64,000 bases of DNA from positions 33,052 through 97,051 of the IMG/VR virus record IMGVR_UViG_2513237329_000015; one strand, 5' to 3'. Each line of letters opens with the position of its first letter. Position 1 is the first letter of the stretch. A model generated the notes under the pieces. It ran no database searches and was not told where the DNA came from. It saw only the letters and a list, made by a program, of their open reading frames with translations. The translations under genes were made by a program, and so were the position numbers. This DNA is from a virus (Duplodnaviria; Caudoviricetes). This document shows, in pieces, positions 2,099 through 34,029 of the stretch.

Positions 2099-2381
2099 TG
2101 ACCGTTCGAGCCCTGATATTGCTGGATTTTAAGTTTTTATGATAATTACCTATAAGATAAAATCTCAACTTTTATATACAAATTCAAGCCCCTCGTGCAA
2201 AGCTATAATATCTAAATATACGCACTTACCTTTCCCTGTCCCCCAATGGGGATAGAACAGGTCGGATAAACAGTCTCCCCTAAGAAAGAACTTAGAATTG
2301 GAGGCGGGCGAAATGCCTTAGTGAAAAGAAGGGTATGAACAGAGTAAGCGTATTTTGAAGTGCGAAGGGAGCTGGAGATTT

Positions 2382-5300
2382 ATGAAGGTAAAAAGATACT
2401 GGAAAAAGATCTTATCCTTGGTACTGACGTCAGCACTCCTGCTCGGCTTGTTGCCGACTGCGGCCTTTGCCTATTCCCCGGATGAAAAAACGGATATCAT
2501 TGAGTTCAAGGCTATGGTACTTGAGAATTTGACGGGCGGAACCGTATCCGAGTATCAGTACCTGACCACCGACAATACATTTTACAGCGACATCAATATG
2601 AATGGCTATACGGATGAAGATGGCGAGTATGGCTATTCTTGGACGATGCTGTCCTATACGATTGAGAAAACGCAGCCGGTCAACCTGATGCTGTACCGCA
2701 TGAATGATGACACGGAGTATGTCTACGGCGACACGGTGAACCTCACCCACTCGGAGAGCCCAGAGGCAGATGAACCGTTTATCGGAGAGTTTATCGGATA
2801 TCTGCATGGCACCCCTCTGCTGGACGAGAACGGGGAACCGTTTATTGGTGATATTCCGGAAGAGGAGCTCCAGGAATTGATTTGGCAAGCCGTTTGGGGC
2901 GGCTTACCCTCAGAAACAATAAAGGAATATACCGCGTTTGGCTTCACCGGTGAGGAGTTGGATATCTCCAATGCGATAGATGCCCCAGAACCTACCGAGA
3001 CGCCTACGGAGCCGAAGCCCACCGAGACGCCCACGGAGCCAGAACCTACCGAGACGCCCACGGAGCCGGAACCCACCGAGACGCCCACGGAGCCGGAACC
3101 CACCGAGACGCCCGCGGAGCCGGAACCCACCGAGACGCCCGCGGAGCCGGAACCCACCGAGACGCCCGCGGAGCCGGAGCCCACCGAGACGCCTGCGGAA
3201 CCGGAGCCCACCGAGACGCCCACGGAGCCGGAACCCAGCGAGACGCCCACGGAGCCGGAACCCAGCGAGGATTCCGCAGATTCAGGACCTGGTGAAGTCC
3301 CCGCAGAACAAAAGGCAAGTGCAGCCCCTGTGATGCTGGAGTCCAGCGAGGAACCTGCAGAGCCGGAGCCCACCGAGACGCCCGCAGAGCCGGAGCCCAC
3401 CGAGACGCCTGAAGAGCCGGAGCCCACCGAGACACCCGTAGAGTCGGAGCCCACCGAGACGCCTGCGGAGCCGGAGCCCACCGAGACGCCTGCGGAGCCG
3501 GAGCCCACCGAGATGCCCGCAGAGCCGGAGCCCATCGAGACGCCCGTAGAACCTGAGCCTACTCCAGTGGAAACAGAACCACAGGTTCCCCAATATACAG
3601 AGGCCGATGTTTTGATTGACCGGGGTGCCAATGGACTGTTTCGCGCGGACACGGATGAGGGCGCCTATACTAAGAACTATCTCCTCTGGGATGGTCTGAT
3701 CGAAACAGAAGATGGCGCTCTTACATACTGCAATCTTGAGAGCGGAAATTATGTTATTGTCATGCAGCCTACCACTCCGGGGGCGGAAAAGTACAGGAGC
3801 TTCCTGGCTTTTTCGCAGAATTCTGAGCGGCAGGATCAGTTCCTGAACTCGGACGCTTGGAGCGAGCTGGAGGCGATGGCGGAAAAATACGGTTGGACAG
3901 TTGACCCCGTGGACCTGTTGACCGGAAGCTTCAAGTGGGAATACCAGGATCTGGCGCTTTACGGGAAAGACGATCTTCCGTTTATCCGGTATTATAACTC
4001 GTCCGATTTTGAGGATGACCATGGCCTCGGCCTAGGCTGGAGCAGCAACTATACCGCATTTTTGGATATTGAGAATCTCTTTGTCCGGGCCATCCTGCCA
4101 AACGGCAGGGAGCTCTATTTCAACCTCAACTTCGACGATACCTTCCGGCCGGTGGGAGACTGCACGCTGGAGTGGGCTGGCGGGGAGTTCCTGTTGAAGA
4201 ACACCAGTGATGGGACAAGCTATGCCTTCACAAAGGAAGGTGATCTGGCACGGATCGACTATTTGAATGGGAATACCGTGCAGTTTAGCTATACTGGCGA
4301 TCAGCTTACCGAAATCTCGAATGCCTCCGGCAGCCTTTTGCTGGAGTACACTGGCGGACACATATCCAGAATTACGGACAGCACAGGCCGCAGTATCACC
4401 CTCACCTATGACGGCGATTACCTGTCCCAGGTGGATAATCCAGACGGAAACAGCTTCTCTTATACATATGAGGACGGCTGCTTGACCGAGGTTTCCAACC
4501 TAAAGGGCGAGGTGTATGTCCAGAACGTGTATGATTCCCAGGGACGAGTCGTGCACCAGGAAGTCGCCAACATGGGTGTATTCGACTTCACGTATGATAC
4601 GGACAACCGGGTCAATACCTGCACAGGTACAGACGGCTACCTGCTGGAAATCCACTACGATGAGTTGGGACGGATTACCCGGAGCACAAATGCGGAGGGG
4701 ACTGCCCGCATCACCTACAATGAGGAAAATCAGGTAACCAGTGAGACAGACCGCGAGGGCAACACCACCCGCTATACTCACGACGAGGCGGGGAATATCT
4801 CCCGCATCACCTATCCGGACGGCACGACGGAGGACTTTGTCTATAATGAAGACCGGCTGGTTACGGAGTTTACCGACCGGAACGGCATTACCAGTTCCTA
4901 TACATATGATGACAAGGGTAACGCTACCAGCCTGACCGACGGCCGCGGCAACACAATTTCCTGTGAGTATGACGCTATGGGCAATATGCTCACTCAGACA
5001 GATGCCGAAGGGAATACGACTACCTACACCTACGACGCGGTGGGAAACTGTACCTCAGTAAGGGATGCCCGCGGCAATCAGACCACTATGGAATATGACA
5101 GACAGGGCCGCCTGCTCTCCCAGATAGATGCCCAGGGCAACACCACTTCCTATGAGTATACCGATGCGGGTAAGCTCGTAAAAATGACGGACGCCCAGGG
5201 CAACGTGCAGAACTACACCGTAGACGGCAATGGCTTCAATACCAGCGAGAGCGACTGGCTGGGAAACACTACAACCAGTGAGCGCAATGCCCAGAACCAG

Positions 5301-8300
5301 GTCACAAAGATCACGGATCCGCTGGGCAACGCCACGACCTACTCCTATGATGACCGGGGCAATATGACTGTGGCCACTGACGCCAACGGGCATTCCACCA
5401 CCTATACCTACGATGCCGCGGGGCGTATGCTCTCCATGACAACCTCCAATGGCGGTACCTGGAGCTATGGCTATGACAACGAGGGGCGGCAGATCTCCGC
5501 CACCGATCCCGCCGGCGGGACCACTACGACCCATTATGACAGTACCGGCCGCACTACTTCTACCACTGACGCCCGTGGTGCTGAGACCTCTTACACCTAT
5601 GACGGTGTGGGAAATACCATCCAAACCAAAGATGCACTGGGCAACAGCACTGTGATGGAATATGACGCCAATGGCAACTTGATCTCCCAGACCGACCGCA
5701 CCGGCGCCCAAACGACCTATACCTATGACGCCAACAACCGTATGGTCAGCAGCACGGATGCGTTGGGCCAAGTTACACAGTATAGCTATGATGAGGTAGG
5801 AAATCTGATCTCTACCACTACCCCGGAAGGGAATAAATCCTCCGCGGAATATGACGATCTGAACCGGGCAGGCTCCTCTACCGACGCTCTGAGCCGCGTG
5901 ACCGCGCAGGAATATGACAGCTTGGGCCGTGTGATCAGGACCACCTATGCCGACGGCTCTAGTGTGTCCTATACTTACGATGCCAACGGGCAGGTGCTCA
6001 CTGCTACGGACGAAATGGGGGGCGTGGTATCCTATACCTACGATGCCAATGGCCGTATGCTCACTACTACCGATCCCATGGGCGGCGTTACCAGTACCAC
6101 CTATGATGCGGTAGGTAATGTGCTCAGCGAAACAACCCCCATGGGCTTCACAACCACCTATACCTACGACGGGGACAACAATGTAGCCGCCGTCACCGAT
6201 GCCAATGGTGCTGCGACCTCCTATACCTATGACGCCATGGATCGGGTGAGCACCGTGACCGACCCCATGGGAGGCACCACCAGCTACACCTATGATGCCG
6301 CTGGCAATCAGAGCACGATCACCGACGCAGAGGGCGGAGTGACCCGCTATGAGTATGACCTGCTGGGCCGCACCACTTCCATGACCGATGCCCGCGGCAA
6401 TACCTGGATCTACGAATACGACAATGAGGGCCGAGCCACTGCGACTGTGGATCCGTTGAACTACTCCACATCCAAGAGTTACGACGCCATTGGCCAGCTT
6501 GTCAGCGAGACGGATGCCAACGGCAACACCTGGACCTACACCTACGATAAGGACGGCCGGCAGACATCTCAAACTGACCCGCTGGGCAATACGACGACAT
6601 ATGCCTACGACGCGGTGGGCAACCTCCTCACCAGCACCACGGCGTTGGGGCGAACCACCAGCTATACCTACGATGCCCGGAACCGCAAGACCAGCGAGAC
6701 CGATCCTATGGGCCATGTGATCACCTTCTACTACGATGCCCTGGGGCGGCTGGTTGGAGCGGACAATAAGGATGGAACGCATGTCTCCACCACCTATGAC
6801 GCCAACGGGAATACCCTGACTACCACGGACGAAGAGGGCTATGTGGTCTCCTATGTCTATGACCTGGACGGCCGTATGACGGAGATGACCAATGCCCGTG
6901 GGTACAAGACCTCCTATACCTACGACGCGGTGGGCAATCAGATTTCCATCACCGATGCCAAGGGTGGTGTGACCAGCTCCGTCTATGATGCCAATGGCAA
7001 TCTGACCTCTGAGACTGATGTGCTGGGCAATACGACCACTTATACCTATGACAAGCTGGGCCGGCTGCTCACCATCACCGATCCCAAGGGCGGCGTGACG
7101 GCCTCGGAGTATGATGCCAACGGCAATCTGGTCAAGGCCACCGATGCGGAGGGCCATGTCATTACCTATACCTATGATGCGCTCAACCGCCTGAGCAGCT
7201 ACGTGGACACCGAGGGCTACACCCACTCCTATACTTACGACGGCAACGGCAACGTTCTCACAGAGACCGACGGCCGGGGCAACACGACTACCTATACCTA
7301 TGACGGCCTGAACCGGCAGGTGGGTATGACTGATGCCGAGGGCGGTGTGTCCTCCAACACCTACGATGCCGACGGCCGCCTGATCCAGACAACCAATGCG
7401 GAAGGCGCTGTGACCAAGTATATCTACGATGACTGCGACCGCGTGGTGGAGATGATCGACGCTCTGGGCAACTCCACCAAGTACACCTATGACGCGATGG
7501 ACCGGGTGCTCACCGTGACAGACCCGCGCGGCGGCGTGACCACTTATACCTACACGGACCGCGGCGACGTGGCCACCGAGACCGATGCCGAGGGCTACAC
7601 CGTCTCCTATGAGTACGACGGCAATCACAATATGGTGAAGAAGACCACCGTGGACGGCGACACCACCTATGTCTATGACGAGCTGGACCGGCTGATCTCC
7701 ACCACCACCCCGGACGGCAAAACCGAAAATATCGAGTACGACGGCAAGGGACAGGTGACCGCTTCCACCGATAAGGGCGGACACACCACGAAGTATGTCT
7801 ATGACGCTGCCGGCAACGTGATCCAGACCATCGACGCCAAGGGCAATGTTGCGGCCTTTGAGTATGACCTGATGGGCAACCTCACAAAGGTCACCCTGCA
7901 TCGTGTGGATACCCAGGACGGCGTGGACGAGTATGAGGTCACCCTGTATGAGTACGACGGCCGGGGCCTCGTCACCAAGGTTGTGGATGCTCTGGGCAAC
8001 GTGACCACCACGGAGTACGACGGCAACGGCAATATCGCAAAGGTCACCGATGCGGACGGATATGTGACGGAATATACCTACAATGCCCTTGATATGGTGA
8101 CGCATATCAACTATAACGGGGGCAAAGAGGTGTCCTATCAGTACAATGCCGTTGGCGACCTGGTGCAGATGGACGATTGGACGGGTACCAACACCTTTGA
8201 GGTGGATCTGCTCAACCGAATCACTGCGGTCACCAATGAGAAGGGCAACAAGGTTACCTATGAGTATGATGCCACTGGAAACCAGACCAGAGTAGGCTAT

Positions 8301-10667
8301 CCTGACGGTACCAGTGTGACCAAGACCTATGATTTGGTGGGCAACCTGGAGAGCGTCGTGGAAAGCGACGGCCGAACCACCACCTACCAGTACGACGGGA
8401 TGCGGCGCTTGGTTCACATGAACTATCCGGATGGCTGGCAGGAGGACTACACCTATGACGCCGTTGGCCAGATCCTGAGTATCTATGACACCGATCCCAC
8501 CGGACAGGACATGAAGCAGCAGAAGAACAAGTTCGAGTACGACGCCTGCGGCAACATGACCTATGAGTATATGCGGGGCAACGGCACCGGAGGGGCTACC
8601 ACAGAGGTGTTCTACACTTATGATGAGCTCCATCAGGTGGTGACGGCAAAGGAGAACTACGGCAACAAAACGCGCACCTACCAGTATGACAGCCTGGGCA
8701 ACCTGACCTATGAGACCAACAGCAACAATGTCCAGTACGACTATAAGCTCAACAATCTCAACCAACTGGTGGAAAAGACCTACAGCAAGGGCAAGGAGCA
8801 TACGGTCTATACCTACGATGGCCGAGGCAACCTGGTCGAGGAGGAGTACGGGAAGAACAAAAAGACCGCCACGGTCGGCGCGTACACCTTCGATGAGACG
8901 AACCGGATGGTGCTGGGCGTCAACGCCGACAGCGAGAGCAGCGCCTATACCTTCAACGGCCTGGGGGCGCTGGTGGAGCAGACCTGGACGATCAAGAAGA
9001 ACAGCTACGGCTACCACGACGGTTCTGAGACGGCTGCGCTGACTGCTCAGGGAGGAGCGGCGGAGACTGAGAGCGGGGCCGATGCGGAGGCGCAGGCCGC
9101 GGCTCCGGCTCCTGACACCGGTACGGCTCTTTTGGATGAGCTGGATGCCATGGGCGACCCGGCCGCTGCTCTGGATGCAGAATTGGGGATCATGCCCTTG
9201 AAGAACGACCACAGCGATAAGAAGCCGGACGATAAGCCCGGCCACAAGCCGAACCAGATGATCACCGTGGTCAAGCAGTTCTTCCCGGATTACACCCGGG
9301 AGACCCTGGACCCGCTGGTGGAGAACGAGGTGGGCGGCCTGGAGTACCGGTATGTCTATGGCAATGAGCGCCTGAGCGTCAACATCACCGGAATCGAGAA
9401 CGGCGCGGGGAGCATTGTGGAGAACGGCAACCAGGTACGGCTCTACTACCACCAGGATCTGCGCGGTACGGTGGACTACCTGACCAGCCCGGTGAGCCAG
9501 AAGATCGAGAGCTGGACACACTACAACGAGTGGGGCGAGATCACCCACAATGCGGTACTCAAGTGCGGCCAGCGGCAGCTCGACCTGGTGAAGAACTACA
9601 CCGGTCATGAGTATGACGCGGTGCTCAACCTCTACTTTGCCAAGGCCCGCTTCTACGACGCGGAGAACCGGCGCTTCATCTCCATGGATCCGGTAAAGGG
9701 TTCAGTCAAGGATCCGATCTCCATGGTGCAGTATCTGTATGTTAAGAACGCTCCTCTGATCTATACTGATCCCACAGGAGAAAAATATTCTCTTGCGCAG
9801 GGAACTGTAGCCCATGCGGAGATTACGGCTTACATTAAAAGTATTGAGCCCACTGCGGAAGGTGGAGTGAAGATAGTTGGACTCACCAGGACAAAGTCTG
9901 GCCGTGGATTTGCAGACATAATCATCAAAAATGGAGGAAACCATGATGTCTATGAAATAAAGTCCGACCAATATGAGTTTTTGGGAAGATATAATGCCGC
10001 TGCTATTAACCAGTTGGACTCTTATGTCAACGCAATAACCAACTATCCAGTAGAAAATGCCAACTATTATCCAGCTAGAAAGGGCACAAAGGTGATTCCA
10101 ACTCCGGTATATCTTCCCTACCTTTTGGATCGAACAAAAGTAATACGTGTATATACAAAATACAACAAGTATCCTGGTCTCATTTTTTACGAGATTATGA
10201 AAGCACCGCAGAATAAGCAAGTTGTTGCGGAGGAGTCCTTTGTTACAGCTTCGCTACTGCAAACGGTAAGCTACTATGGAATGGTTACATGTGAGTACCC
10301 ACCAGCCTATTACCAAGATTACATTAATGTTGATTCTTATTTGGATCAACAAATGAATGATGATATTCAAGCATGGCTTGATGGTGCAACCGTTTCAACA
10401 TATACCGAAGGGCTTAATATTTATACTAAGATAGTATATGCAGATGGTACCGAGGTTTACCGTTATGAGGGGCTGGGAGTTCCTTTTTTGACAACTACTC
10501 CTAAGCTAAGCGGTAGTGAATTGCTCACAATTAGAGAGGGTGGAACTTATAACCAACTACAAGGCTGGGCGTCATCTGCAAAAGAAGCATTTAATTTGCA
10601 AAAAGCCGCATCGACAGTCCCGGTGCTACCGCTTCCTGGAGGAGGCGTAGTCGTACCGGTAGTCTGA
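2382..10667 (+). CDS. Secreted Rhs/YD-repeat polymorphic toxin (signal peptide, Pro/Glu/Thr repeats, DUF6531-like domain, YD repeats, Rhs core, putative PD-(D/E)xK nuclease tip)
   Basis: Signal peptide MKVKRYWKK...TAAFA; DPVDLLTG...GLGWS; dozens of YTYDAxG repeats; core end PLIYTDPTG (~9753-9779) followed by a GC drop; tip GFADIII...VYEIKS. Confidence 0.92.
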   Translation: MKVKRYWKKILSLVLTSALLLGLLPTAAFAYSPDEKTDIIEFKAMVLENLTGGTVSEYQYLTTDNTFYSDINMNGYTDEDGEYGYSWTMLSYTIEKTQPVNLMLYRMNDDTEYVYGDTVNLTHSESPEADEPFIGEFIGYLHGTPLLDENGEPFIGDIPEEELQELIWQAVWGGLPSETIKEYTAFGFTGEELDISNAIDAPEPTETPTEPKPTETPTEPEPTETPTEPEPTETPTEPEPTETPAEPEPTETPAEPEPTETPAEPEPTETPAEPEPTETPTEPEPSETPTEPEPSEDSADSGPGEVPAEQKASAAPVMLESSEEPAEPEPTETPAEPEPTETPEEPEPTETPVESEPTETPAEPEPTETPAEPEPTEMPAEPEPIETPVEPEPTPVETEPQVPQYTEADVLIDRGANGLFRADTDEGAYTKNYLLWDGLIETEDGALTYCNLESGNYVIVMQPTTPGAEKYRSFLAFSQNSERQDQFLNSDAWSELEAMAEKYGWTVDPVDLLTGSFKWEYQDLALYGKDDLPFIRYYNSSDFEDDHGLGLGWSSNYTAFLDIENLFVRAILPNGRELYFNLNFDDTFRPVGDCTLEWAGGEFLLKNTSDGTSYAFTKEGDLARIDYLNGNTVQFSYTGDQLTEISNASGSLLLEYTGGHISRITDSTGRSITLTYDGDYLSQVDNPDGNSFSYTYEDGCLTEVSNLKGEVYVQNVYDSQGRVVHQEVANMGVFDFTYDTDNRVNTCTGTDGYLLEIHYDELGRITRSTNAEGTARITYNEENQVTSETDREGNTTRYTHDEAGNISRITYPDGTTEDFVYNEDRLVTEFTDRNGITSSYTYDDKGNATSLTDGRGNTISCEYDAMGNMLTQTDAEGNTTTYTYDAVGNCTSVRDARGNQTTMEYDRQGRLLSQIDAQGNTTSYEYTDAGKLVKMTDAQGNVQNYTVDGNGFNTSESDWLGNTTTSERNAQNQVTKITDPLGNATTYSYDDRGNMTVATDANGHSTTYTYDAAGRMLSMTTSNGGTWSYGYDNEGRQISATDPAGGTTTTHYDSTGRTTSTTDARGAETSYTYDGVGNTIQTKDALGNSTVMEYDANGNLISQTDRTGAQTTYTYDANNRMVSSTDALGQVTQYSYDEVGNLISTTTPEGNKSSAEYDDLNRAGSSTDALSRVTAQEYDSLGRVIRTTYADGSSVSYTYDANGQVLTATDEMGGVVSYTYDANGRMLTTTDPMGGVTSTTYDAVGNVLSETTPMGFTTTYTYDGDNNVAAVTDANGAATSYTYDAMDRVSTVTDPMGGTTSYTYDAAGNQSTITDAEGGVTRYEYDLLGRTTSMTDARGNTWIYEYDNEGRATATVDPLNYSTSKSYDAIGQLVSETDANGNTWTYTYDKDGRQTSQTDPLGNTTTYAYDAVGNLLTSTTALGRTTSYTYDARNRKTSETDPMGHVITFYYDALGRLVGADNKDGTHVSTTYDANGNTLTTTDEEGYVVSYVYDLDGRMTEMTNARGYKTSYTYDAVGNQISITDAKGGVTSSVYDANGNLTSETDVLGNTTTYTYDKLGRLLTITDPKGGVTASEYDANGNLVKATDAEGHVITYTYDALNRLSSYVDTEGYTHSYTYDGNGNVLTETDGRGNTTTYTYDGLNRQVGMTDAEGGVSSNTYDADGRLIQTTNAEGAVTKYIYDDCDRVVEMIDALGNSTKYTYDAMDRVLTVTDPRGGVTTYTYTDRGDVATETDAEGYTVSYEYDGNHNMVKKTTVDGDTTYVYDELDRLISTTTPDGKTENIEYDGKGQVTASTDKGGHTTKYVYDAAGNVIQTIDAKGNVAAFEYDLMGNLTKVTLHRVDTQDGVDEYEVTLYEYDGRGLVTKVVDALGNVTTTEYDGNGNIAKVTDADGYVTEYTYNALDMVTHINYNGGKEVSYQYNAVGDLVQMDDWTGTNTFEVDLLNRITAVTNEKGNKVTYEYDATGNQTRVGYPDGTSVTKTYDLVGNLESVVESDGRTTTYQYDGMRRLVHMNYPDGWQEDYTYDAVGQILSIYDTDPTGQDMKQQKNKFEYDACGNMTYEYMRGNGTGGATTEVFYTYDELHQVVTAKENYGNKTRTYQYDSLGNLTYETNSNNVQYDYKLNNLNQLVEKTYSKGKEHTVYTYDGRGNLVEEEYGKNKKTATVGAYTFDETNRMVLGVNADSESSAYTFNGLGALVEQTWTIKKNSYGYHDGSETAALTAQGGAAETESGADAEAQAAAPAPDTGTALLDELDAMGDPAAALDAELGIMPLKNDHSDKKPDDKPGHKPNQMITVVKQFFPDYTRETLDPLVENEVGGLEYRYVYGNERLSVNITGIENGAGSIVENGNQVRLYYHQDLRGTVDYLTSPVSQKIESWTHYNEWGEITHNAVLKCGQRQLDLVKNYTGHEYDAVLNLYFAKARFYDAENRRFISMDPVKGSVKDPISMVQYLYVKNAPLIYTDPTGEKYSLAQGTVAHAEITAYIKSIEPTAEGGVKIVGLTRTKSGRGFADIIIKNGGNHDVYEIKSDQYEFLGRYNAAAINQLDSYVNAITNYPVENANYYPARKGTKVIPTPVYLPYLLDRTKVIRVYTKYNKYPGLIFYEIMKAPQNKQVVAEESFVTASLLQTVSYYGMVTCEYPPAYYQDYINVDSYLDQQMNDDIQAWLDGATVSTYTEGLNIYTKIVYADGTEVYRYEGLGVPFLTTTPKLSGSELLTIREGGTYNQLQGWASSAKEAFNLQKAASTVPVLPLPGGGVVVPVV
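2985..3270 (+). repeat. 27-bp coding tandem repeat (EPTETP[T/A]EP), about 10 copies
   Basis: GAACCCACCGAGACGCCC[A/G]CGGAGCCG units. Confidence 0.9.
3351..3573 (+). repeat. Second block of the same 27-bp repeat, about 8 copies
   Basis: GAGCCCACCGAGACGCC...GAGCCG units. Confidence 0.9.
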
Positions 10668-11527: not shown

Positions 11528-11766
11528 AGAAGAGCACGGCCTTACTCCGGAGCAATATAAAGCTGCCACAGAGTACGCAACTGCCAGCGAACGCGGTAAT
11601 TACTATATCCAGGCGTTCATAGATATTTTGAAGAAGAACCCCAAGATCTGAGCGTTTTGGAATGGTATCTTTAGAAAACACATAGCATCGGCATGTCGCT
11701 GGGAGATTTCCTCTCAGCGACATGCCCTCAGTTTTGGTTTTGTATCCATATTTCGGGGAGGTCATT

Positions 11767-13587
11767 ATGAGAAAAGGTAATTTGCTGCTGTGCGGAATAG
11801 TCGCTGTGGCAATGCTAGCGCCGTCATGCCAGGCCATCGCTCCTGATGTGGAATACAAGCGGCTTCCTGATTGGAATTGCCTAGAAGGACTGGAGTCTTA
11901 TACCGAAGAAAACGGCGCTATAGTTCCAGTTCTACATGTGGGCGGTAATTGGAAATGTAATTTTGCAAACCAATGGGGGGAATTACTTGTAGAAGGGGTT
12001 TTTGACGATTTCGGCGAATTCTCGGAGGGTCTGGCTTTGGTGCGTGTGGGTGATACATTCGGGTATATTGACACGCTTGGGACAATGGTGATCCAACTGC
12101 CTGAAGATGCCTCATATTGTGGAGACTTCCATAACGGGCGCGCTTTTATCAAAGGAAGAGATGGGGATAGGTACTATATCGACAGGACGGGAGAAATCAT
12201 CTATCGCAGTCCAGAGGATGTTTTTTTAGCGGCGGAATTTGATGAACATGGGATCGCACCGGCCAAAGATCTCCAGAGCGGCTTATACGGATATTATAAC
12301 CAAGACGGCTATTGGGAGATCCCTCCGCAGTATGAGACGACCTATTCTTTTGAGGGGGATTATGCGTTTTTCCGCGAGGACGGAAAAGGCGGAATAATGG
12401 ATCGCAGTGGGGCTATCATTCTTCCACCTAAGTATTCGATCGTTTATACGCTTTCGGAAGGGGATCCCGCACTATTTGGTATCTGTGAGACTCGGGATGA
12501 AAAACAGCTCTATGGCTTAGCAGATTCGAACGGCACGATTCTGATAGAACCTCAAGACAAATGGACGTATAGCGTTCCGATGTATTCGTGCGGGTATTGT
12601 GTGGTTAACTATCGATATCGCCAATATGATCCAGAGTCGGGTGATTATACGGACAGTTCTCCCAACAGTCTTATTGATGAGAAGGGCAATGAGATTCCCC
12701 TGCCGTATGAGGTTACAGATAGCCAATTCTACGATGGTTTTCTTCTGGTCAGGGATCCGGAAAGGACGGCATATCTCAATACAGACTTGGAGGAAGTTCT
12801 TTCGCTGGATATATCATTTGAGGAATATTCCGCAAGTCCTCTCATCGACGGTATTGTTGCTGTAACCAAAGATATCGGCAGTCACACCTATGTGATTGAC
12901 CAGGATGGAGAACTTATTTGTGAAATGACGGACAGCCGCCTCCATGATGATTTTGGGGTATTTTCAGAAGGGACTTGCTGGGCTCGAACGGTCAGTGAAA
13001 CAGAGGGAGGCTCTTTTTTATACTTCGATCCCCGCCTGAAAGACTATACCAGTCCCTGGGCGGCGGCGGAGATGGATCGTGCTCAGGCGGCGGGGCTGGT
13101 GACGGAGAGCAACGACAGCTATTTCACGTTCCGCATCACGCGGCGGCGGTTCGCGGAGCTGATGGCCAATCTGGTGGAAAAGACGACCGGCCGGAGCATC
13201 ACCCCGGCGCCGGAGGGCACCTTCTCGGACACCGACGATCTATGGGTGCGCAAGGCCGCCGCGCTGGGGCTGGTCAACGGCCTGGACGACGGCCGCTTCA
13301 GTCCCAACGGCTACATCAACCGCGAGCAGCTGGCCGTCATGCTGCATCGGACGATTGAGTACCTGGAGGACGAGACCGGCCGGAGCGTGCTCGCAGACGC
13401 CGGCGGCCTGGAAAGCTTCACCGATGCCGGACAGGTCTCCGGCTGGGCGGCGGACTCCCTGGCGGCCCTCACCGCCTCCGGTATCCTCCAGGGTACTTCC
13501 AGCGCCACCCTCTCCCCCAAGGACACCACTACCGTGGAGCAGGCCATTCTCCTCACTCTCCGAGCCTATCAGGAGTTTTCTAAATAG
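11767..13587 (+). CDS. Secreted WG-repeat protein with C-terminal SLH domains
   Basis: Signal peptide; FSEGLALV...FGYID repeats; SLH motifs FSPNGYINREQLA, LSPKDTTTVEQA. Confidence 0.88.
   Translation: MRKGNLLLCGIVAVAMLAPSCQAIAPDVEYKRLPDWNCLEGLESYTEENGAIVPVLHVGGNWKCNFANQWGELLVEGVFDDFGEFSEGLALVRVGDTFGYIDTLGTMVIQLPEDASYCGDFHNGRAFIKGRDGDRYYIDRTGEIIYRSPEDVFLAAEFDEHGIAPAKDLQSGLYGYYNQDGYWEIPPQYETTYSFEGDYAFFREDGKGGIMDRSGAIILPPKYSIVYTLSEGDPALFGICETRDEKQLYGLADSNGTILIEPQDKWTYSVPMYSCGYCVVNYRYRQYDPESGDYTDSSPNSLIDEKGNEIPLPYEVTDSQFYDGFLLVRDPERTAYLNTDLEEVLSLDISFEEYSASPLIDGIVAVTKDIGSHTYVIDQDGELICEMTDSRLHDDFGVFSEGTCWARTVSETEGGSFLYFDPRLKDYTSPWAAAEMDRAQAAGLVTESNDSYFTFRITRRRFAELMANLVEKTTGRSITPAPEGTFSDTDDLWVRKAAALGLVNGLDDGRFSPNGYINREQLAVMLHRTIEYLEDETGRSVLADAGGLESFTDAGQVSGWAADSLAALTASGILQGTSSATLSPKDTTTVEQAILLTLRAYQEFSK
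13375..13587 (+). repeat. 213-bp near-identical direct repeat (second copy 15242-15454) encoding the last SLH domain
   Basis: Both proteins end TGRSVL..AGGL.SFTDAGQVSGWAADSLAALTASGILQGTSSATLSPKDTTTVEQAILLTLRAYQEFSK. Confidence 0.92.
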
Positions 13588-13660
13588 GTTGGACGGGGCA
13601 GGGCGCGAAATATATCTGCGCTCTGCCCCAATAGAAATGCAGGAAAGATGGGGATTTACT

Positions 13661-15454
13661 ATGAAACGACGGTTAATAGGATTTCTTCTGTCATGTGCCA
13701 TGCTTCTTCCTCAAAGCATGGTATGGGCAAGCGCATCCGGGCCTGCACTTGATATTTCCTGGATTGAGTTGCCATCTTCTGCCGCTTGGGATGTTATAGC
13801 TGACGATATTACCGCTGGCCCTGTCTGTTTTGCGCACGATGACCCTTTTGAGATGAGTCAATACTATGACTTGTCGGGTAAGCCTGTCGAAACCGGCTTT
13901 GCCTACAGACCGGGCGACTACTATTTTTCCTGTGGATTGGGAGTGATCGAGCGGGACGGGAAATACGGTTATATCGATGCCGAGGGGAATTTAGTGATCG
14001 ACTGCATCTATGATGCTGGCTACACATTTGAGGATGGCTTGGCTCTGGTGGAGAAGGACGGGGAAGAGTTGCTGATCGATGTGTCCGGAAAAACCTTCAT
14101 GAACCTAAGCGAACGCCAGCTAAATGCCTATTCGGGCTTTTCGGAAGGGTTCTGCGCAGTGAGCTCTGAGGCAGAGGGAGAAAACTGGGGATTAACCGGC
14201 TACATAGACAAAAATGGAGAGCTTGCAGTCCCGATGCGTTACATGTCTGCTTTCGATTTCCACGATGGAATTGTTGTTGTGCGGGAATATTATGACGGGA
14301 AGGGCAGCACTGGAGCAGTGGACAAAGAGGGGAATGTCATTATCCCCTGTGAATATGACGATGTAGAAAACTATACCGCTAATAAGAACTACCTCATTGC
14401 AACAGATGAGACACGGAGCGATATTTATCGCAGAGACGGAACGCTTTTACATTCGTTTCCGAAATCCCAATATGATAGGGTCAGAATAGGAGAAATAAAC
14501 GACCTGATTTTTGTTGAAAAGAACTACAGGTGTGGCTGCTTAGATATGGACGGCCAAGAAATAGTTCCTATGATGTATTATGTCCTTCAAGAATCGGGAA
14601 TTGATGGGGGCTTAATAGCGCAGAAGGTTCCGTATCAAACTCCTGCTGGCACAAATATGTGGGGAACCATTGCCCTTGATGACGAGATGGCGTTCGTCCC
14701 ATTTCCTGATGAAGCTGCATATGTCGGATTTCCTTTTTCTGAAGGCAGTATTGTAGTAAAACAACAGTCAACCGGAAAATATGGCTATATGGATCAGACA
14801 GGTGCCTGGGTCGTTCCTCCCCAATTTGATCAGGCAAAGTCCTTTGAGAATGGGTACGAGCTGGTTTGCCAGGATGGCAGAATTGGCATTCTGAAAAATC
14901 CTCTTGATCTTCCCAGTCCATGGGCCGCCGGTGCTGTAAGCACAGCCCGGGAACTGGGCCTGTTGCCTCGACAAGTCGATAGTTGCTATACCACAGCGAT
15001 AACACGTCAGCACTTTTCTGAACTTATGGTTTGTCTGGTGGAAACTGCTGACGGCAAGAAAATAGATGCAAGGTCAGTCCTTCCATTTACAGATACTGCG
15101 GATATTGCAGCAAGAAAAGCCTATGCAGCAGGTATCGTAACCGGAACTGGAGATGGAACGACCTTTTCACCAGATGCCTCTATCACCAGAGAACAGATGG
15201 CGGCGATGCTGTACCGGGCCATTCAATACATCCAGAAGCAAACCGGCCGGAGCGTGCTCACAGAGGCCGGCGGCCTGGACAGCTTCACCGACGCCGGACA
15301 GGTCTCCGGCTGGGCGGCGGATTCCCTGGCGGCCCTCACCGCCTCCGGCATCCTCCAAGGTACTTCCAGCGCCACCCTCTCCCCCAAGGACACCACCACT
15401 GTGGAGCAGGCGATTCTCCTCACCCTACGGGCCTATCAGGAGTTTTCTAAATAG
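13661..15454 (+). CDS. Second secreted WG-repeat protein with SLH domains
   Basis: MKRRLIGFLLSC signal peptide; KYGYID, FSEG repeats; FSPDASITREQMA. Confidence 0.88.
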   Translation: MKRRLIGFLLSCAMLLPQSMVWASASGPALDISWIELPSSAAWDVIADDITAGPVCFAHDDPFEMSQYYDLSGKPVETGFAYRPGDYYFSCGLGVIERDGKYGYIDAEGNLVIDCIYDAGYTFEDGLALVEKDGEELLIDVSGKTFMNLSERQLNAYSGFSEGFCAVSSEAEGENWGLTGYIDKNGELAVPMRYMSAFDFHDGIVVVREYYDGKGSTGAVDKEGNVIIPCEYDDVENYTANKNYLIATDETRSDIYRRDGTLLHSFPKSQYDRVRIGEINDLIFVEKNYRCGCLDMDGQEIVPMMYYVLQESGIDGGLIAQKVPYQTPAGTNMWGTIALDDEMAFVPFPDEAAYVGFPFSEGSIVVKQQSTGKYGYMDQTGAWVVPPQFDQAKSFENGYELVCQDGRIGILKNPLDLPSPWAAGAVSTARELGLLPRQVDSCYTTAITRQHFSELMVCLVETADGKKIDARSVLPFTDTADIAARKAYAAGIVTGTGDGTTFSPDASITREQMAAMLYRAIQYIQKQTGRSVLTEAGGLDSFTDAGQVSGWAADSLAALTASGILQGTSSATLSPKDTTTVEQAILLTLRAYQEFSK

Positions 15455-15938: not shown

Positions 15939-15976
15939 GAAGAAACTGGCGAGGCTTTTGCCTAGCCAGTTTCTTC
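15939..15976. terminator. Hairpin ending the Rhs locus
   Basis: GAAGAAACTGGC-GAGGC-TTTT-GCCTA-GCCAGTTTCTTC. Confidence 0.6.
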
Positions 15977-16050
15977 GCGATGAAATGAGCATCTCTCCCT
16001 TCTAGACCTATATGACAGATACGGGGGGGAGAGCTTTTATTAAATTGCAG

Positions 16051-16281
16051 TTGGAAAAACTCCGCCTATACAGGAGAGGAAAGAGCTGATAGAATAAAGG
16101 CGTATTCTAGGTCAGAGCAAGATTAAGGGCGGAGTAAGTTAGGGCGGAACGGCGTGGAAGGAGGGTGAAGTCTGCCCTCTGCCGGACAGCTACGACCTGG
16201 AAAATTGAATCTGGACATGAATGACTGTAATTGCCTTTTGGGGTGGTTGCGGTCTTTTTTTGTCCCCAAATAGGAAAGGAG
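16051..16281 (+). promoter_or_regulatory. Duplicated promoter + structured leader + intrinsic terminator, copy 1
   Basis: TATACA(16067)-N17-TAGAAT(16090) with extended TG; terminator stem 16223-16254 + T7; RBS GAAAGGAG; near-identical to 38496-38725. Confidence 0.85.
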
Positions 16282-16286
16282 AATGA

Positions 16287-19200
16287 ATGGCGCAAAGCAG
16301 ACTGATTGAACTAAGCTATTTTGACCCGCACACATCCATCCGCCTGACCACCTATGCGGATACCATCGTGACCGACTACAGTTCCCCAAACCGTATCATC
16401 AGCGCAGTCCGGTTCGGTGGATATCCAGAGGTAGTAAAGGCAATGTCGGACGCGATCTACGGCGGAGCAACCATCGACGTATGTTCAAACGGTGAGACCC
16501 TGCATCTGGACACGCTTCCCAAGGGCTACCGAAGGCAGCTCTCCCACGACGGCATGTACGCTGCGGCCACTCTTATGGCCAACGACGACGCGCAATCCCT
16601 GGATCAGCTAAAGGAGGACACCGCAGAAGATGACTCCCTCGAAGAGAGCAAGCCGCGTAAATGCTATATCTTCTGCCCAGCCGGGGATCAGGACAGGCTT
16701 TTTGAAGAAGTGGATCGGAAAACAGCGGCTCCGCTGATTCCAGAATTTCGGGACTATGTCCTGCAGGAGCTCATCCGCCGGGGAGAGCTGAGAAGGATGG
16801 AGGTATTCTCCGTCAAGGAGAAGATGGATGCCTGGGTTCTCTCTCTGCTGCCGGAGGATAAAAATGTGGTACAGGTGCTGGAGGATGGCCTGAAAACCGG
16901 ACAGATTGCTATACCAGGGGCGACGCCCGGAATGCCGGATGGTTTTGCTCAGGTAGAAAATGTTACCGACTATCTTAGCACCTACGGTATCACGGTCGCC
17001 GACCGTATCCGAAAACAGTTTATCCCCCTGTTTGACCCGGCCTCCGAGCCGCTGTCGGACGAAGTGCTGGACATCAACCGCTATATTCAGCAGAAGGCTG
17101 GATATTCCCTTTATGATGCACAGCTTGCTGTGGCCGAAGCGACCAAGCGCCAGCTTCAGCGCTGCGGCACGGCCTTGATTGTGGCAGAATGTGGAAGTGG
17201 AAAAACGAAAATTGGTACAGATGCTTTGGGTGCCCTCTATGGGCTTGGGGCTGCACAGGGCGGCAAGAAGACCTTCAACCTGGTCATGGCCCCGTCACAT
17301 GTCACAAAGAAGTGGGTGCGTGAGATCGGCGAGACTCTGCCCAACACCTTTGCCATGGTGGTAAAAAGCATCACAGACCTCAACCGGCTTTATGATATGT
17401 ACCAGAACTGTCCTCAGAGTGTTTTTGCGGTGTTCAGCAAGGAGCGCGCCCGGGACGGCTATATGCGCTATCCCGCTGTTCAGTGGAATTGCAGAAAAAA
17501 AGCGTTTCTCTGTCCAGACTGCATGGAACCGGTTGAAATGGAGATCAGCGAGGATGGCACCAGGTACACGGTCAACGCCGACCAGTTTTTCTTTCAGAAG
17601 GAGCACAAAAGGAACCACAAATGCCGCCGTTGCGGCGCAGTTCTCTGGGCACCGGTAGTCCCTGGGAGGCAAATCGACTGGATCAAGATCCCAGAGTATG
17701 GCTGGATCTACCGTTACAGGGCAGGCAAGCATCTCATGCGCACCCAAAACGAGGCGGTATTGGATCAGCTTACCCAAATTGCCGCATTCCCGGAGCAGAG
17801 CTATCCGGTGAGGGGAGCAAAGCGCAGGTTTCCGCTGAGCACCTACATCAAAAGGAAAATGCGCGGACAGATCGATGCAATTCTTTGTGATGAACTGCAT
17901 CAGTACAACAATGCAAGCGGTCAAGGTGACGCCATGGCGGAGCTGTTTGGCGTCTGCAGGTATTATATCGGCATGACTGCCACCTTGATTAACGGGTACA
18001 GCAGCGGCATCTTCCACCTGCTTTACCGTCTGCTCCCCGGCCTGATGCTCAAGGACGGGAAGCGATATCGAAAACCGGGCGACTTTGATGCTGAGTACGG
18101 CGTTGTAGAGAACACCTACGAAATCAAAGATGCAGCCTACAACTCCAATCGAAGGGCCATAAAAAGGAAAACTAAGAGCCGCCAGCTTCCAGGCGTATCC
18201 CCGCTGGTATACTCACGCTTCCTGCTGGAGTATACCTCCTTCCTATCACTTTCCGATATGGGGAAGGATTTGCCGGACTACGAGGAGATCCCGGTCCCAC
18301 TGGATATGCCCGAAGCGGTTTACAGCAGCTACGAAAAGATTGAACATGAGCTTCGGATGGTTTTGAAGACAGACCGAAAGGCGGCGCAAAAGATTCTCTC
18401 TGCCTATCTTAACCTTCTGACCGTCTATCCGGATCAGCCTTACGATCAGCCTGCCATAATACACCCCATTGAGGGGACGGTCATTGCAGAACCGCCCAAC
18501 ATGGCATCCTTTGAGGACATTCTGCCCAAAGAGGAAAAGACACTGGAAATTGTCCGGGAAAAGCTCGCAGCAGGAGAACGGGTGCTCATCTATACCAGTT
18601 GGACCCGGACCGACTCACAGAAAAAACTGCTGAAGCAACTCCATCAGGAGGGCATCTGCGCAGAGATCCTGAAACCCAGCGTCCCCACCGAAAAGCGGGA
18701 GGAATGGGTGGAAAAGCGTGTCCGGTTCGGACTACAGGTACTCATTACCAATCCATCCGTAGTAGAAACCGGGCTCGATTTGAATGCCTTTACGACCCTG
18801 ATCTTCTACTCGATAGGCTACAACCTCTTCACGCTCCGGCAGGCGTCGCGCCGCTCATGGCGTATCAATCAGAGCGCGCCGAGGGTCGAGGTCTATCTGC
18901 TCTATTATGCCAATACCATCCAAGCCAAGGCCGTGAAGCTGATGGCCTCCAAGCTGGCGGTGGCCGGCATTATTGAGGGCACCTTCTCGGAGGAGGGCCT
19001 GTCCGCCATGAGCGATGTGCGGGACCTGACCTCCCAGATGGCCAAGGAGCTCTCACTCGGCATCAAGGACAACGTGGAGGATATTGCCGCGGCGTTCAAG
19101 AAAATGGCGGTCATCAACCCGGGGCGAGAGAATAGACAAAAGCAGCCCGTACAGACCGCGGCGGGCTCCGAGGTATTCTCTATGCCTGCTGTGGAGCATC

Positions 19201-19367
19201 CCGCCGCATCCGGCACACCGGGCGGCATCCGCGCAGTGGAATCCCAGCAGCGACGGATGCTCTATGAAGGCCTGCTGCAAAAAAGAATGGAAGAACAACA
19301 AAAACGCAGGAAAAAGCAGCGCACAGTGGACGAAAACCAACTGTCGCTCTTTGGGCCTGCCGCTTGA
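16287..19367 (+). CDS. Superfamily 2 (SNF2/DEAD-like) helicase with Zn ribbon and C-terminal beta-clamp-binding motif
   Basis: Walker A ECGSGKT, DELH, TAT, ETGLDL, QASRRSWRI; CPDC...CRRC; ends ENQLSLFGPAA. Confidence 0.88.
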   Translation: MAQSRLIELSYFDPHTSIRLTTYADTIVTDYSSPNRIISAVRFGGYPEVVKAMSDAIYGGATIDVCSNGETLHLDTLPKGYRRQLSHDGMYAAATLMANDDAQSLDQLKEDTAEDDSLEESKPRKCYIFCPAGDQDRLFEEVDRKTAAPLIPEFRDYVLQELIRRGELRRMEVFSVKEKMDAWVLSLLPEDKNVVQVLEDGLKTGQIAIPGATPGMPDGFAQVENVTDYLSTYGITVADRIRKQFIPLFDPASEPLSDEVLDINRYIQQKAGYSLYDAQLAVAEATKRQLQRCGTALIVAECGSGKTKIGTDALGALYGLGAAQGGKKTFNLVMAPSHVTKKWVREIGETLPNTFAMVVKSITDLNRLYDMYQNCPQSVFAVFSKERARDGYMRYPAVQWNCRKKAFLCPDCMEPVEMEISEDGTRYTVNADQFFFQKEHKRNHKCRRCGAVLWAPVVPGRQIDWIKIPEYGWIYRYRAGKHLMRTQNEAVLDQLTQIAAFPEQSYPVRGAKRRFPLSTYIKRKMRGQIDAILCDELHQYNNASGQGDAMAELFGVCRYYIGMTATLINGYSSGIFHLLYRLLPGLMLKDGKRYRKPGDFDAEYGVVENTYEIKDAAYNSNRRAIKRKTKSRQLPGVSPLVYSRFLLEYTSFLSLSDMGKDLPDYEEIPVPLDMPEAVYSSYEKIEHELRMVLKTDRKAAQKILSAYLNLLTVYPDQPYDQPAIIHPIEGTVIAEPPNMASFEDILPKEEKTLEIVREKLAAGERVLIYTSWTRTDSQKKLLKQLHQEGICAEILKPSVPTEKREEWVEKRVRFGLQVLITNPSVVETGLDLNAFTTLIFYSIGYNLFTLRQASRRSWRINQSAPRVEVYLLYYANTIQAKAVKLMASKLAVAGIIEGTFSEEGLSAMSDVRDLTSQMAKELSLGIKDNVEDIAAAFKKMAVINPGRENRQKQPVQTAAGSEVFSMPAVEHPAASGTPGGIRAVESQQRRMLYEGLLQKRMEEQQKRRKKQRTVDENQLSLFGPAA

Positions 19368-21263: not shown

Positions 21264-22379
21264 ATGGCTATGAATGTAACCGTAAACCGGGCCGAATTTC
21301 TGGCGGCGGCAAAGCGGGCGGCATCGGTTGCTCCGCTCTCATCCCCGCTGGAGCCGCTGAGAGGTATCCTGCTGGAGACCGACCGCAGGGAAGGATGCCT
21401 GACTATCAGCGCCACCAACCTGGAGGTTTCTCTTGTCCAAACCATCCCGTGCACCTCTCTGGACGTCGACGCCCTGGTACTCAATGCCCGGCTTCTGGAA
21501 GGGATGCTCGACAAACTGGAGGAAGACAGCGTGACGCTGATCCGTGTGGAGCAGCAACCGGTGGTTTTACTCACCAGCGGCCTTGCCACCTATAGGATAG
21601 GGGTATGGGAGCGCGGCCTCTTCCCGCAAATCGAATCGCCCTATCCGGCGGATACCGTCCTGGTCACTGGAATCCCTGCCATGACCAAGCGCACCATATT
21701 TGCGGTGGGAGAGAAGAAAAATACGCCCCTGCTGCGCTGCGTAAACCTCATGTTTACGCCGAACGGCCTGAAAGCGGTGGGCAGCAACGGAAGCTGTGTG
21801 GTCAGCGCGAAGGGGGACAGCCAGAGTACCGGCAACATCAGCTTGCTTGTGCCGGCATCTTCTCTGGGCAAGCTGGCCCACATGTGTGAGGATACGGATG
21901 AATTCCGGGTCGGAACCACTGGAGACCATATCGTTTTCTTCCGGGACGGACTTCTGTTCAGCGCACGGCTCATGTCCGGCCGGTATATCAATACCGAACA
22001 GCTCATCTCCTCTCTGGTCAACACCTTTACTGTTTTTACCGATGTGACCGATCTGCGTGATGGCCTTTATACCGCCTGCTCTGTGGAAGCGGATGGGAAG
22101 GTCATGCTGCACTTTGAGGGGGACCGGCTCATATTCCGCTGCGACGGCGTCTACGGCAGTGCGGTTTCCCAGATCGACGTGATCCCGTTGAGAGGGACGC
22201 CCCAGGGAGAGTTCTGGTATCTGACCCGTCCGCTCCTGACGTGCCTGGATGCACTTTCCGGTACGGTCCAGCTTGGCACGGCGCAGGGCGGTCTGCTGAC
22301 CATCTCCACTGAGGACGCTTTTTATATGCAAAACGGAGTGCGCCCGCCCAGTGAGCAGCAGTCCTCTAAGGCGGCCTGA
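21264..22379 (+). CDS. DNA polymerase III beta-clamp paralogue 1 (divergent)
   Basis: 371 aa; VNRAEFLAA...LRGILLE...LTISATNLEVSL; ARLMSGRYIN. Confidence 0.8.
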   Translation: MAMNVTVNRAEFLAAAKRAASVAPLSSPLEPLRGILLETDRREGCLTISATNLEVSLVQTIPCTSLDVDALVLNARLLEGMLDKLEEDSVTLIRVEQQPVVLLTSGLATYRIGVWERGLFPQIESPYPADTVLVTGIPAMTKRTIFAVGEKKNTPLLRCVNLMFTPNGLKAVGSNGSCVVSAKGDSQSTGNISLLVPASSLGKLAHMCEDTDEFRVGTTGDHIVFFRDGLLFSARLMSGRYINTEQLISSLVNTFTVFTDVTDLRDGLYTACSVEADGKVMLHFEGDRLIFRCDGVYGSAVSQIDVIPLRGTPQGEFWYLTRPLLTCLDALSGTVQLGTAQGGLLTISTEDAFYMQNGVRPPSEQQSSKAA

Positions 22380-25166: not shown

Positions 25167-25535
25167 ATGAAAAACAACTATTCTATCGCCGAGCGCAACC
25201 GTATCGTAGAGGAACATCTCTGGTGCATCGACCGGGTTATCCGCAAGAACCGTTCGTTGATGCGCGCGGCGCGTCTGGACTATGATGACGTGTACCAGCA
25301 GCTCTCCATCCGGCTCATTCGGGCCGTCGCGGGCTTCGATCCCCAAAAGGGTAAATTGAAGCAGCATATCTTTGCCCAGCTCCGGTTTGAGTTGCTCAAC
25401 TGCAAGCGGCCATACCGTATGTTTGGTATGACCGGCCTGCCCGCAGACTACCGCGGCAAAAAAATCATCTCGATCGAGGATTACTTGGAACGACACAGCG
25501 GAGCGGAGCCCGATGGCTTCTTCCTGTCGGCGTGA
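25167..25535 (+). CDS. Sigma-70 region-2-only protein
   Basis: RNRIVEEHL...DYDDVYQQLSIRLIRAVAGFDPQKG; no region 4 in 122 aa. Confidence 0.65.
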   Translation: MKNNYSIAERNRIVEEHLWCIDRVIRKNRSLMRAARLDYDDVYQQLSIRLIRAVAGFDPQKGKLKQHIFAQLRFELLNCKRPYRMFGMTGLPADYRGKKIISIEDYLERHSGAEPDGFFLSA

Positions 25536-34009: not shown

Positions 34010-34029
34010 AATGGAGCTGAGAAAATAGA

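Follow-up and report, generated by a model that had tools for sequence, protein, structure and literature searches.

Two copies of a ~230-bp cassette, each made up of a promoter, a leader and a terminator, head two long gene runs in a 64-kb stretch of phage DNA (the window, meaning the whole stretch analysed). This arrangement raises the question of what kind of element the cassette is, and of how the genes behind it might be transcribed with a strong terminator standing directly before the first of them. The window makes up the right two-thirds of a 97-kb record that is classed as a provirus and is an Oscillospiraceae prophage; the left 12 kb of the record encodes a terminase large subunit, a portal, a head maturation protease, a major tail protein and a tape-measure/endolysin-like protein. 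The two cassettes head both non-structural operons of this temperate phage.

Twin cassettes and the genes behind them

A repeat search of the window recovered the pair at 16051-16269 and 38496-38714, with a spacing of 22,445 bp. Pairwise alignment showed near-identity over 16051-16281 versus 38496-38725, starting exactly at 16051/38496 between unrelated flanks and stopping just past the ribosome-binding site. The duplicated ~230-bp unit of the preliminary description, with its three promoter differences, is thereby borne out: upstream of the -10 box the copies differ at 16064 (G/A), 16079 (G/A) and 16084 (A/G). Positions 16096-16243 are identical in both, and the one substitution in the transcribed part is at 16244 (T/C); the U-run is T7 versus T6, and a further change lies at 16273 (G/C). 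The exchange at 16244 is the single change that had been placed between the -10 box and the end of the terminator stem and, as stated there, it turns the stem pair G16225-U16244 into a G-C pair in copy 2. The first 21 nt of the unit occur at two sites only in the window, where none would be expected (100 shuffles).

The cassette begins with an imperfect palindrome, GTTGGA-N5-TCCGCC (16050-16066, no strand assigned), which has its centre near -45, abuts the -35 hexamer and is likely an operator for a dimeric DNA-binding protein. The palindrome in the window is degenerate; most relatives have 6-8-bp arms at the same position upstream of the -35 hexamer, typically TAGTTGR-N5-9-YCAACTA, with lineage variants such as GGTGGA/TCCACC, CTTGCGG/CCGCAAG and ACCTGAA/TTCAGGT. 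A consensus scan placed the promoter at 16067-16095 on the plus strand (a -35-like TATACA, a 17-nt spacer and the extended -10 element TGaTAGAAT) and a 14-pair hairpin followed by T7 at 16223-16254, with a matching promoter (38512-38540) and hairpin (38668-38699) in copy 2. Transcription is predicted to start near G16102; both TGnTAnAAT and the GTATT start (GUAUU in the RNA) are kept across the family. Counted from the predicted start and including the U-run, the leader RNA spans ~160 nt (16102-16261, plus strand) and scores 139.7 bits with R1, a covariance model that we built from 41 sequences, while that of copy 2 (38547-38705, plus strand) scores 137.6 bits.

Within the leader of copy 1, on the plus strand throughout, the 5' strand of helix P1 (UUCUAGGUC, 16105-16113) pairs with its 3' strand (GACCUGGAA, 16194-16202). 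A purine-rich array of three units occupies 16109-16149 (AGGTCAGAG at 16109-16117, AGGGCGGAG at 16126-16134 and AGGGCGGAA at 16141-16149). Helix P2 (16150-16184) joins CGGC at 16150-16153 to GCCG at 16181-16184 and encloses hairpin P3, whose strands GGGUG (16163-16167) and UGCCC (16173-16177) flank the loop AAGUC. An extended terminator hairpin follows at 16213-16265, comprising GGAC (16213-16216), an A-rich flank, the 14-pair stem (16223-16254), U7 (16255-16261) and GUCC (16262-16265); the ribosome-binding site (GGAAAGGAG) and helicase ATG lie at 16273-16289. Copy 2 has its palindrome and promoter at 38495-38540 (ATTGGA-N5-TCCACC, TATACA at 38512-38517, TAGAAT at 38535-38540), units at 38554, 38571 and 38586, P1 between 38550-38558 and 38639-38647, the terminator stem at 38668-38699 with U6 at 38700-38705, and the ribosome-binding site and JAB-gene ATG at 38717-38736, all on the plus strand. 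A conserved leader peptide was considered and rejected: relatives lack an ATG for the 18-codon open reading frame that, in the window, crosses the terminator.

The first gene after copy 1 encodes a 1026-aa SF2 helicase (16287-19367, plus strand), and run 1 further includes genes for a beta-clamp paralogue, DUF3268 and LPD11 proteins, a sigma region-2 fragment, a MoxR ATPase and SSB. Copy 2 is followed by a gene for a 511-aa JAB-domain protein (38734-40269, plus strand), and then in run 2 by genes for ThiF/E1, a second clamp, a DUF6094 methyltransferase, a prokaryotic E2, Rad52, a primase-like protein, DUF6744 and a sigma region-4-like activator, before three to four serine recombinases. The cassette thus has the make-up and the position that had been proposed for it, at the head of both gene runs, and the same holds in every related element examined. 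The start codons at 16287 and 38734 lie 25-28 nt past the U-run, and in the family 20-30 nt always separate the terminator from the start codon, a gap that holds no promoter. Consensus scans thereby uphold the earlier placing of a strong terminator ~25-30 nt ahead of the first start codon with no room for another promoter.

From this anatomy, we infer that both operons would depend on read-through. The preliminary description had put ~20 kb and ~16 kb of genes under such dependence, of which the second figure stands for run 2. Run 1, on the other hand, would be one read-through unit over ~17 kb only and not to its end, because a near-consensus, strong sigma-70-type promoter (TTGACG-16-TGnTATAAT, 33956-33983) lies inside it, ahead of a HicB-like gene. 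This promoter and the HicB/RHH antitoxin-like gene after it (33956-34631 in the window) probably belong to a HicAB cargo module that carries a promoter of its own.

The surroundings of the cassettes hold several further features. Transcribed divergently from copy 2, and ~25 bp from its palindrome, is a gene for an OmpR-type winged-helix protein (Trans_reg_C, 37574-38266, minus strand) with a near-consensus promoter at 38471-38443 on the minus strand; relatives are without Trans_reg_C at that site and have a vWA gene directly ahead of leader 2. A 62-nt inverted repeat, 90% complementary, lies at 37178-37239 and 51658-51719 of the window, and the 14.4 kb between its arms holds Trans_reg_C together with copy 2 of the leader and the greater part of run 2. 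Since each arm holds an extended -10-like TGATACAAT, the arms may represent another promoter in duplicate, one copy directed rightward and the other antisense into the end of run 2; alternatively, the arms may be the ends of an invertible segment. Two sigma-like open reading frames (25167-25535, 122 aa with sigma region 2 only; 55563-56069, 168 aa and region-4/DUF1492-like) and two divergent beta-clamp paralogues (21264-22379 and 41030-42127) together recall T4 late transcription with gp55, gp33 and gp45. Upstream of copy 1, two paralogous WG-repeat proteins with SLH domains (11722-15454 of the window) have a common 278-nt repeat at 87% identity, and a 2770-aa YD/RHS-repeat protein precedes them at 2355-10667. 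The upstream neighbours of leader 1 are not conserved in relatives, with YpsA in one and a Cro/C1 helix-turn-helix protein in another.

A structured leader family in Oscillospiraceae phages

The helicase has more than 1100 relatives at ~70% identity, several of them named as Oscillibacter, and is also found on ten viral contigs. Single-protein locus searches returned almost nothing; it was alignment-based searches that found the loci. With one genome per species, such a scan gave 106 confirmed loci in Oscillospiraceae, Flintibacter, Pseudoflavonifractor, Lawsonibacter and other hosts, and a scan of metagenomes gave at least 481, mostly from the human gut. By blastn, some 50 of 80 retained loci carry the leader right in front of the helicase ATG, at 68-77% identity. 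Searches with blastn of the unit against phage and plasmid collections yielded no match, and when viral contigs were scanned for the double repeat as an exact pattern, the only matches were chance ones in high-G+C DNA.

Cultured carriers of such elements include Flintibacter muris DSM 110149 with at least two, Bengtsoniella intestinalis BP47G with two of different repeat types, and Pseudoflavonifractor sp. 60. Applied to five carrier genomes, R1 detected four to five copies in four of them. In these four genomes eight elements could be resolved, and all eight have one copy ahead of the helicase gene and the other ahead of the JAB gene, a placement kept in one element with divergent operons and in another whose operons are 65 kb apart. 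The cassette was found in about 5% of the genomes sampled from the host family; among 150 further genomes of that family, six carry the leader, four of them in two copies; three of these four pairs share a contig and a strand, and the same-contig pairs lie 13-19 kb apart. Given this recurrent pairing before the helicase and JAB genes across related elements, duplication is, on comparative grounds, a designed feature of the phage family and not an accident of one genome.

Helicase relatives outside this family, and less regular forms of the leader, were also seen. Those of Lachnospiraceae (L045-L051, L057) are without this leader and have a different one instead, consisting of a promoter-like region, a ~45-aa hydrophobic open reading frame (MKL.ENILKAAAALIA...) and a terminator just before the helicase ribosome-binding site; this type is single-copy in Acetatifactor muris. 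One locus (L098, G005:C3:150248-150399) is a third, partial copy with a palindrome, promoter and units that match the element of that genome; it has no terminator and adjoins serine recombinase genes on another contig. Upstream of the helicase in L078 and L083 are more distant variants that R1 missed, which keep the GUA(C/U)UUUAGG start, AGGU(C/A)GGAG units, a GGGGCC..GCGCCCC hairpin and the terminator, with ~130 nt extra before the ribosome-binding site in L083.

The preliminary description had not recognised the leader as a known riboswitch and had called for an Rfam search. At gathering thresholds, none of the 4227 models of Rfam 15, among them riboswitches, C4 antisense RNA, EAR and the DUF3268 motif, matched within the 64-kb window. 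Permissive E-values on 15950-16350 produced chance matches only (E at least 2), and the leaders of eight related loci were likewise without an Rfam match.

Comparison among relatives argues for a conserved fold. The minimum-free-energy fold of the window sequence contains the TTCTAGGTC/GACCTGGAA helix, as had been described (z = -2.6 against shuffles). In an unbiased MAFFT alignment, P1, P2, P3 and the terminator together have 86.4% of cells paired, versus 38-50% when the partners are slid by one to three columns; double changes are seen at 19 pairs, and none of the five measures is reached by any of 500 shuffles. A model-fitted alignment of 52 distinct sequences, which leans toward the structure, gives 87.5% paired and 23 double-change pairs. 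RNAalifold applied to the MAFFT alignment returned the terminator only, and the upstream helices were specified and counted by hand. These counts support P1, P2, P3 and the terminator, which is the covariation that the earlier account had asked for.

Single helices bear individual marks of compensation. P1 varies as GUAUUUAGG/CCUAAAUAC in L042 and UGUAUUCC/GGGAAUACA in L027, undergoes a U-A to C-G exchange at column pair 20/129 in the L020 group, and is recovered by single-sequence folds in most lineages. Double changes occur at all five P2 pairs; P3 is 87-89% paired, and the terminator is 90-94% paired, with double changes at 9-10 pairs. Furthermore, four relatives have 50-80 nt of extra hairpins inserted after P3 with P1 and P3 retained. 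Judged by this comparative record, the leader represents a new family of structured RNAs, absent from Rfam and showing good covariation.

One structural proposal found no support. Two AGGGCGGA repeats had been put forward as alternative partners of TCTGCCCT, suggesting a switch. In the window the repeats can pair with C-rich 3' segments, and the minimum-free-energy fold there contains these pairings. However, in the unbiased MAFFT alignment the repeat-2 helix has 4 compensatory cells, compared with 19 in P2, and the repeats are no more complementary to the 3' segment of their own sequence than to that of another lineage. For duplexes of the repeat region with the segment 3' of P3, the mean energy is -12.8 kcal/mol when both come from one sequence, -11.7 when they come from different lineages and -10.5 for shuffles, so that repeat covariation seen by eye is not demonstrated. 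In addition, leaders folded short of the 3' half of the terminator (53 sequences) revealed no consistent partner for its 5' half. With no conserved antiterminator and few double changes, there is no evidence for a self-contained switch.

These results bear on whether the leader could be a metabolite riboswitch whose expression platform is the terminator. Its folded 5' domain, with a terminator between it and the gene, is the arrangement that this would call for. We nevertheless consider it very improbable, because the number of repeat units varies from two to four and their sequence is element-specific; moreover, the terminator has no conserved antiterminator overlapping it, large inserted hairpins are accommodated and Rfam has no match.

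Repeat array, terminator and proposed read-through

The array consists of two to four tandem AGGNNRGA units, ~15 nt apart and starting from about +8, with the first unit within P1. Of 52 unique leaders, 46 have AGGNNRGA two to three times with a spacing of 14-17 nt, whereas 0.056 occurrences are expected per 75 nt. In one relative, L011, there are 3.6 copies of a 15-nt unit at 97% match; TRF left the degenerate three-unit array of the window itself uncalled. A unit number that varies (2, 3 or 4) is more in keeping with modular binding sites than with a ligand pocket.

Copies within one element are 77-99% identical, whereas lineages differ from one another at 45-60% identity. Variants of the palindrome and of the repeats are common to both copies of an element and differ between elements, even between co-residents of one host. 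Thus, in genome G002, one element has GATAGGTGCAA-type arms with AGGGAGGAGCAGAG/AGGAUAGAGCAGAG units, and the other has TAGTTGAA arms with three AGGUCGGAGCAAAG units. Concerted, element-specific variation within one host suggests element-encoded partners rather than host factors, and is what immunity or specificity determinants would be expected to show.

Such partners could equally read the repeats as DNA, which tells against assigning them to an RNA-binding factor. The tandem units may be duplex sites for a repressor roadblock, for the loading of a Q-like factor in the initially transcribed region, or as origin iterons, with the same protein or a partner of it binding the palindrome. Direct repeats at +8 to +50 do evolve in concert with the upstream palindrome, replication genes lie downstream, and the right arm of the window's palindrome, CTCCGCC, reads in reverse complement as the repeat core GGCGGAG. 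The order of promoter, ~160-nt terminated leader and long operon is, moreover, that of lambda PR'-tR'. This arm-repeat similarity, however, fails in other lineages, the first unit belongs to P1 with its compensatory changes, and a 14-17-bp period sets successive sites on different faces of the double helix. Orientation to the operon is also fixed even where the operons are divergent, and a Q-family protein was not found in the 97-kb record. We regard DNA-site function as unlikely, if still worth weighing.

The hairpin behind the array has the features of an intrinsic terminator, namely a G+C-containing stem of 14 pairs, compensatory changes and a U-run of 6-7 U directly after it. The two cassette terminators are the strongest plus-strand terminators in either run, and no other strong one lies inside the runs. 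In Bacillus subtilis, terminators with stems of 14-15 bp resisted processive antitermination by conAn (PMC10325885), and the 14-pair stem of the cassette falls in this resistant length class.

A stem of this length suggests efficient termination, and the ~160-nt terminated RNA may itself be the product, a small RNA acting in trans from two loci as an immunity RNA or as a sponge for a protein. The immunity RNAs of P4 (CI) and P1/P7 (C4) derive from the leader of the operon that they control. A promoter followed by a strong, long-stem terminator yields a discrete, well-folded RNA, the A-rich linker before the terminator hairpin is as in many small RNAs, and repeated single-stranded purine motifs are available with which a sponge could titrate an RNA-binding protein; in principle, the G-rich repeats are also complementary to the C-rich 3' segments. 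That complementarity is not lineage-specific, though, and Rfam models gave no match. Furthermore, the unit always sits 20-30 nt before the start codons of the same two operons, in the orientation of the operon and with no other promoter. We therefore rate a small RNA as a minor contender, improbable as the main function.

The terminator is itself part of a longer hairpin, in which the U-run pairs with the A-rich 5' flank and which has a closing helix in all 50 unique sequences, as GGAC/GUCC, GAAC/GUUC or GACAC/GUGUC. In the chimera control for this helix, GUCC proved to be shared by most lineages. In one metagenomic sequence (L136:1005-1190), GUUCUUGUUC replaces the U-run and is perfectly paired with the 5' flank GAACAAGAAC, and this long perfect hairpin would probably not terminate. 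Paired U-runs of this kind invite the idea that the leader is a constitutive 5' stabiliser and attenuator, in which the paired 5' end and the Shine-Dalgarno-like purine motifs would guard long operon mRNAs from 5'-to-3' decay, the terminator would merely lower output and RNase III might cut the extended hairpin. Bacillus offers models for such stabilisers in STAB-SD and in 5' hairpins. The use of the extreme 5' end in P1, the GGAGG-like cores of many units and of the 5' strand of P3, the closure of the ~25-bp hairpin in all 50 sequences and the L136 exchange all speak for this idea. Units without GGAG in some lineages, for example AGGUAAGAU, speak against it, as does the element-specific concerted variation, which is unexpected of a site that pairs with the constant tail of 16S rRNA, and we rate it as quite improbable.

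The cassette would most likely work as a transcription checkpoint. In the mechanism that we rank first, the palindromic operator beside the -35 hexamer would set initiation at an extended -10 promoter of host type. The leading ~100 nt of the RNA would then fold, with the extreme 5' end pairing ~90 nt downstream in P1, enclosing P2 and P3 and leaving the purine array of two to four units largely single-stranded. The long-stem terminator would follow ~20 nt after the folded domain, directly before the ribosome-binding site, where by default polymerase would halt and release a ~160-nt RNA. The operons would be transcribed only when an element-specific factor drives polymerase to read through, and this factor would most likely be an oligomeric, phage-encoded protein that reads the repeat array on the nascent RNA. 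The start site, termination and read-through are all deduced from sequence, as are the factor itself and its nature. Factor-dependent read-through is placed first because the placement, orientation and pairing of the cassettes follow the operons, the array resembles the sites of multimeric proteins and specificity co-varies. Default termination relieved by an element-specific factor that binds the array is nonetheless a tentative preference, to which we give a little short of an even chance.

The search for a factor was confined to the 97-kb record and its proteins. NusG paralogues (PF02357) and HutP (PF09021) are absent from the record, as are the Q families PF06530 and PF03589 at E up to 0.1, a level at which divergent Q-like proteins could escape. 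PHROGs and Pfam scans of ~50 open reading frames produced no RNA-binding candidate, most small frames having no family match. Read-through by a dedicated factor is also weakened by the lack of strong internal plus-strand terminators that would need processive antitermination, by the variable gene content upstream of leader 1, and by the resistant length class of the stem (PMC10325885).

Relation to known control elements

Phage HK022 provides the nearest case of duplicated leader RNAs. Its putL and putR are two similar cis-acting RNAs located past two early promoters, where they govern terminator read-through; each is ~70 nt with two stem-loops and binds the beta' zinc-binding domain (PMC9378689). 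The likeness to the cassettes lies in two copies per element heading operons, in the window and in eight related elements. The P1-P3 domain might by analogy be a put-like, factor-independent RNA which binds polymerase in cis and suppresses the terminator and later pauses, in which case only transcripts begun at the cassette promoter would be extended. Such a domain folds before the terminator is made, and it would account for a record in which no protein factor was found. Put, on the other hand, has no repeats and no adjacent terminator, whereas here a nested P1-P2-P3 domain of ~100 nt with two to four purine units takes the place of two adjacent stem-loops in a V shape, a terminator follows directly, the sequence is element-specific and the host is a Firmicute. 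Host polymerase would demand a constant surface, in contrast to the element-specific sequence and number of the repeats, and constitutive read-through would render a conserved strong terminator pointless. The chance that the domain works in the manner of put seems to us slim.

Lambda offers two other parallels, which with putL/putR are the closest analogies for the proposed read-through. In the N/nut system, one type of recognition site, as nutL and nutR at PL and PR, heads two operons, and P3, as a short G+C stem with a pentaloop, resembles boxB. In the Q system, a constitutive promoter and a terminated leader of 150-200 nt (PR'-6S-tR') precede a long operon, a layout that the cassette reproduces with its ~160-nt leader and operons of ~17 and ~16 kb. 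The differences are that the record yielded no N-like or Q-family gene, that no boxA was found, that the recognition element here is a tandem array and not a single hairpin, and that the genes behind it serve replication, recombination and ubiquitin-like functions rather than late ones.

Firmicutes also supply a parallel, in the conjugation operon of pLS20, where a long leader with an intrinsic terminator precedes the first gene of a very long operon (PMC13401043, PMC8191782). The cassette shares this position just ahead of a very long mobile-element operon, and its stem has the length of conAn-resistant terminators, 14 bp or more (PMC10325885). The cATT zipper attenuator of pLS20, by contrast, needs an upstream segment complementary to the terminator, and the cassette has no conserved one. 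An attenuator of the zipper type (PMC13401043) is no fit, because the 5' end sits in P1 and nothing complements the terminator; the unit is, moreover, duplicated here.

Oligomeric regulators that bind several copies of a short RNA motif are likewise known, among them TRAP (GAG/UAG), HutP (NAG) and, in sponge RNAs, CsrA (GGA). The cassette resembles their targets in its evenly spaced purine motifs within a terminator-ended leader, and if the units are read as NAG triplets, several lineages show a 7-8-nt period. The array departs from all three in period and motif, in lying clear of the terminator and in being element-specific, and HutP is absent from the record. Systems built on NusG paralogues (RfaH/ops, LoaP) differ in that the record has no PF02357 protein; the repeat core GGCGGAG bears what we take to be only a loose resemblance to ops.

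The cassette is thus of a kind known by its anatomy, a phage leader-terminator control element, with an architecture that is new: the 5' end closes a domain that carries a tandem purine array of element-specific sequence, the unit is deployed twice, and the terminator is set inside a longer hairpin. It is conceivable, although we hold it to be doubtful as a whole, that these features make up a phage antitermination system in which a 5' tandem-repeat RNA and an element-specific RNA-binding factor license passage of a long-stem terminator twice per genome. Such a system would fire the replication and ubiquitin-like operons together, would have diverged in specificity so that co-resident prophages avoid cross-activation, and would be common in human-gut Oscillospiraceae.

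If a dedicated factor does read the array, it would represent a new class of antitermination beside N, Q, put, RfaH/LoaP and conAn, and would offer orthogonal, specificity-diversified terminator switches for synthetic biology in anaerobes. Even if the leader should prove to be a small RNA or a stabiliser, it would still be a new structured RNA family absent from Rfam. To our knowledge, very little is known about the timing of gene expression in temperate phages of the dominant gut Firmicutes. Fronting ~33 kb of replication, recombination and ubiquitin-like genes, the cassette provides a compact, conserved and experimentally tractable handle on that timing.
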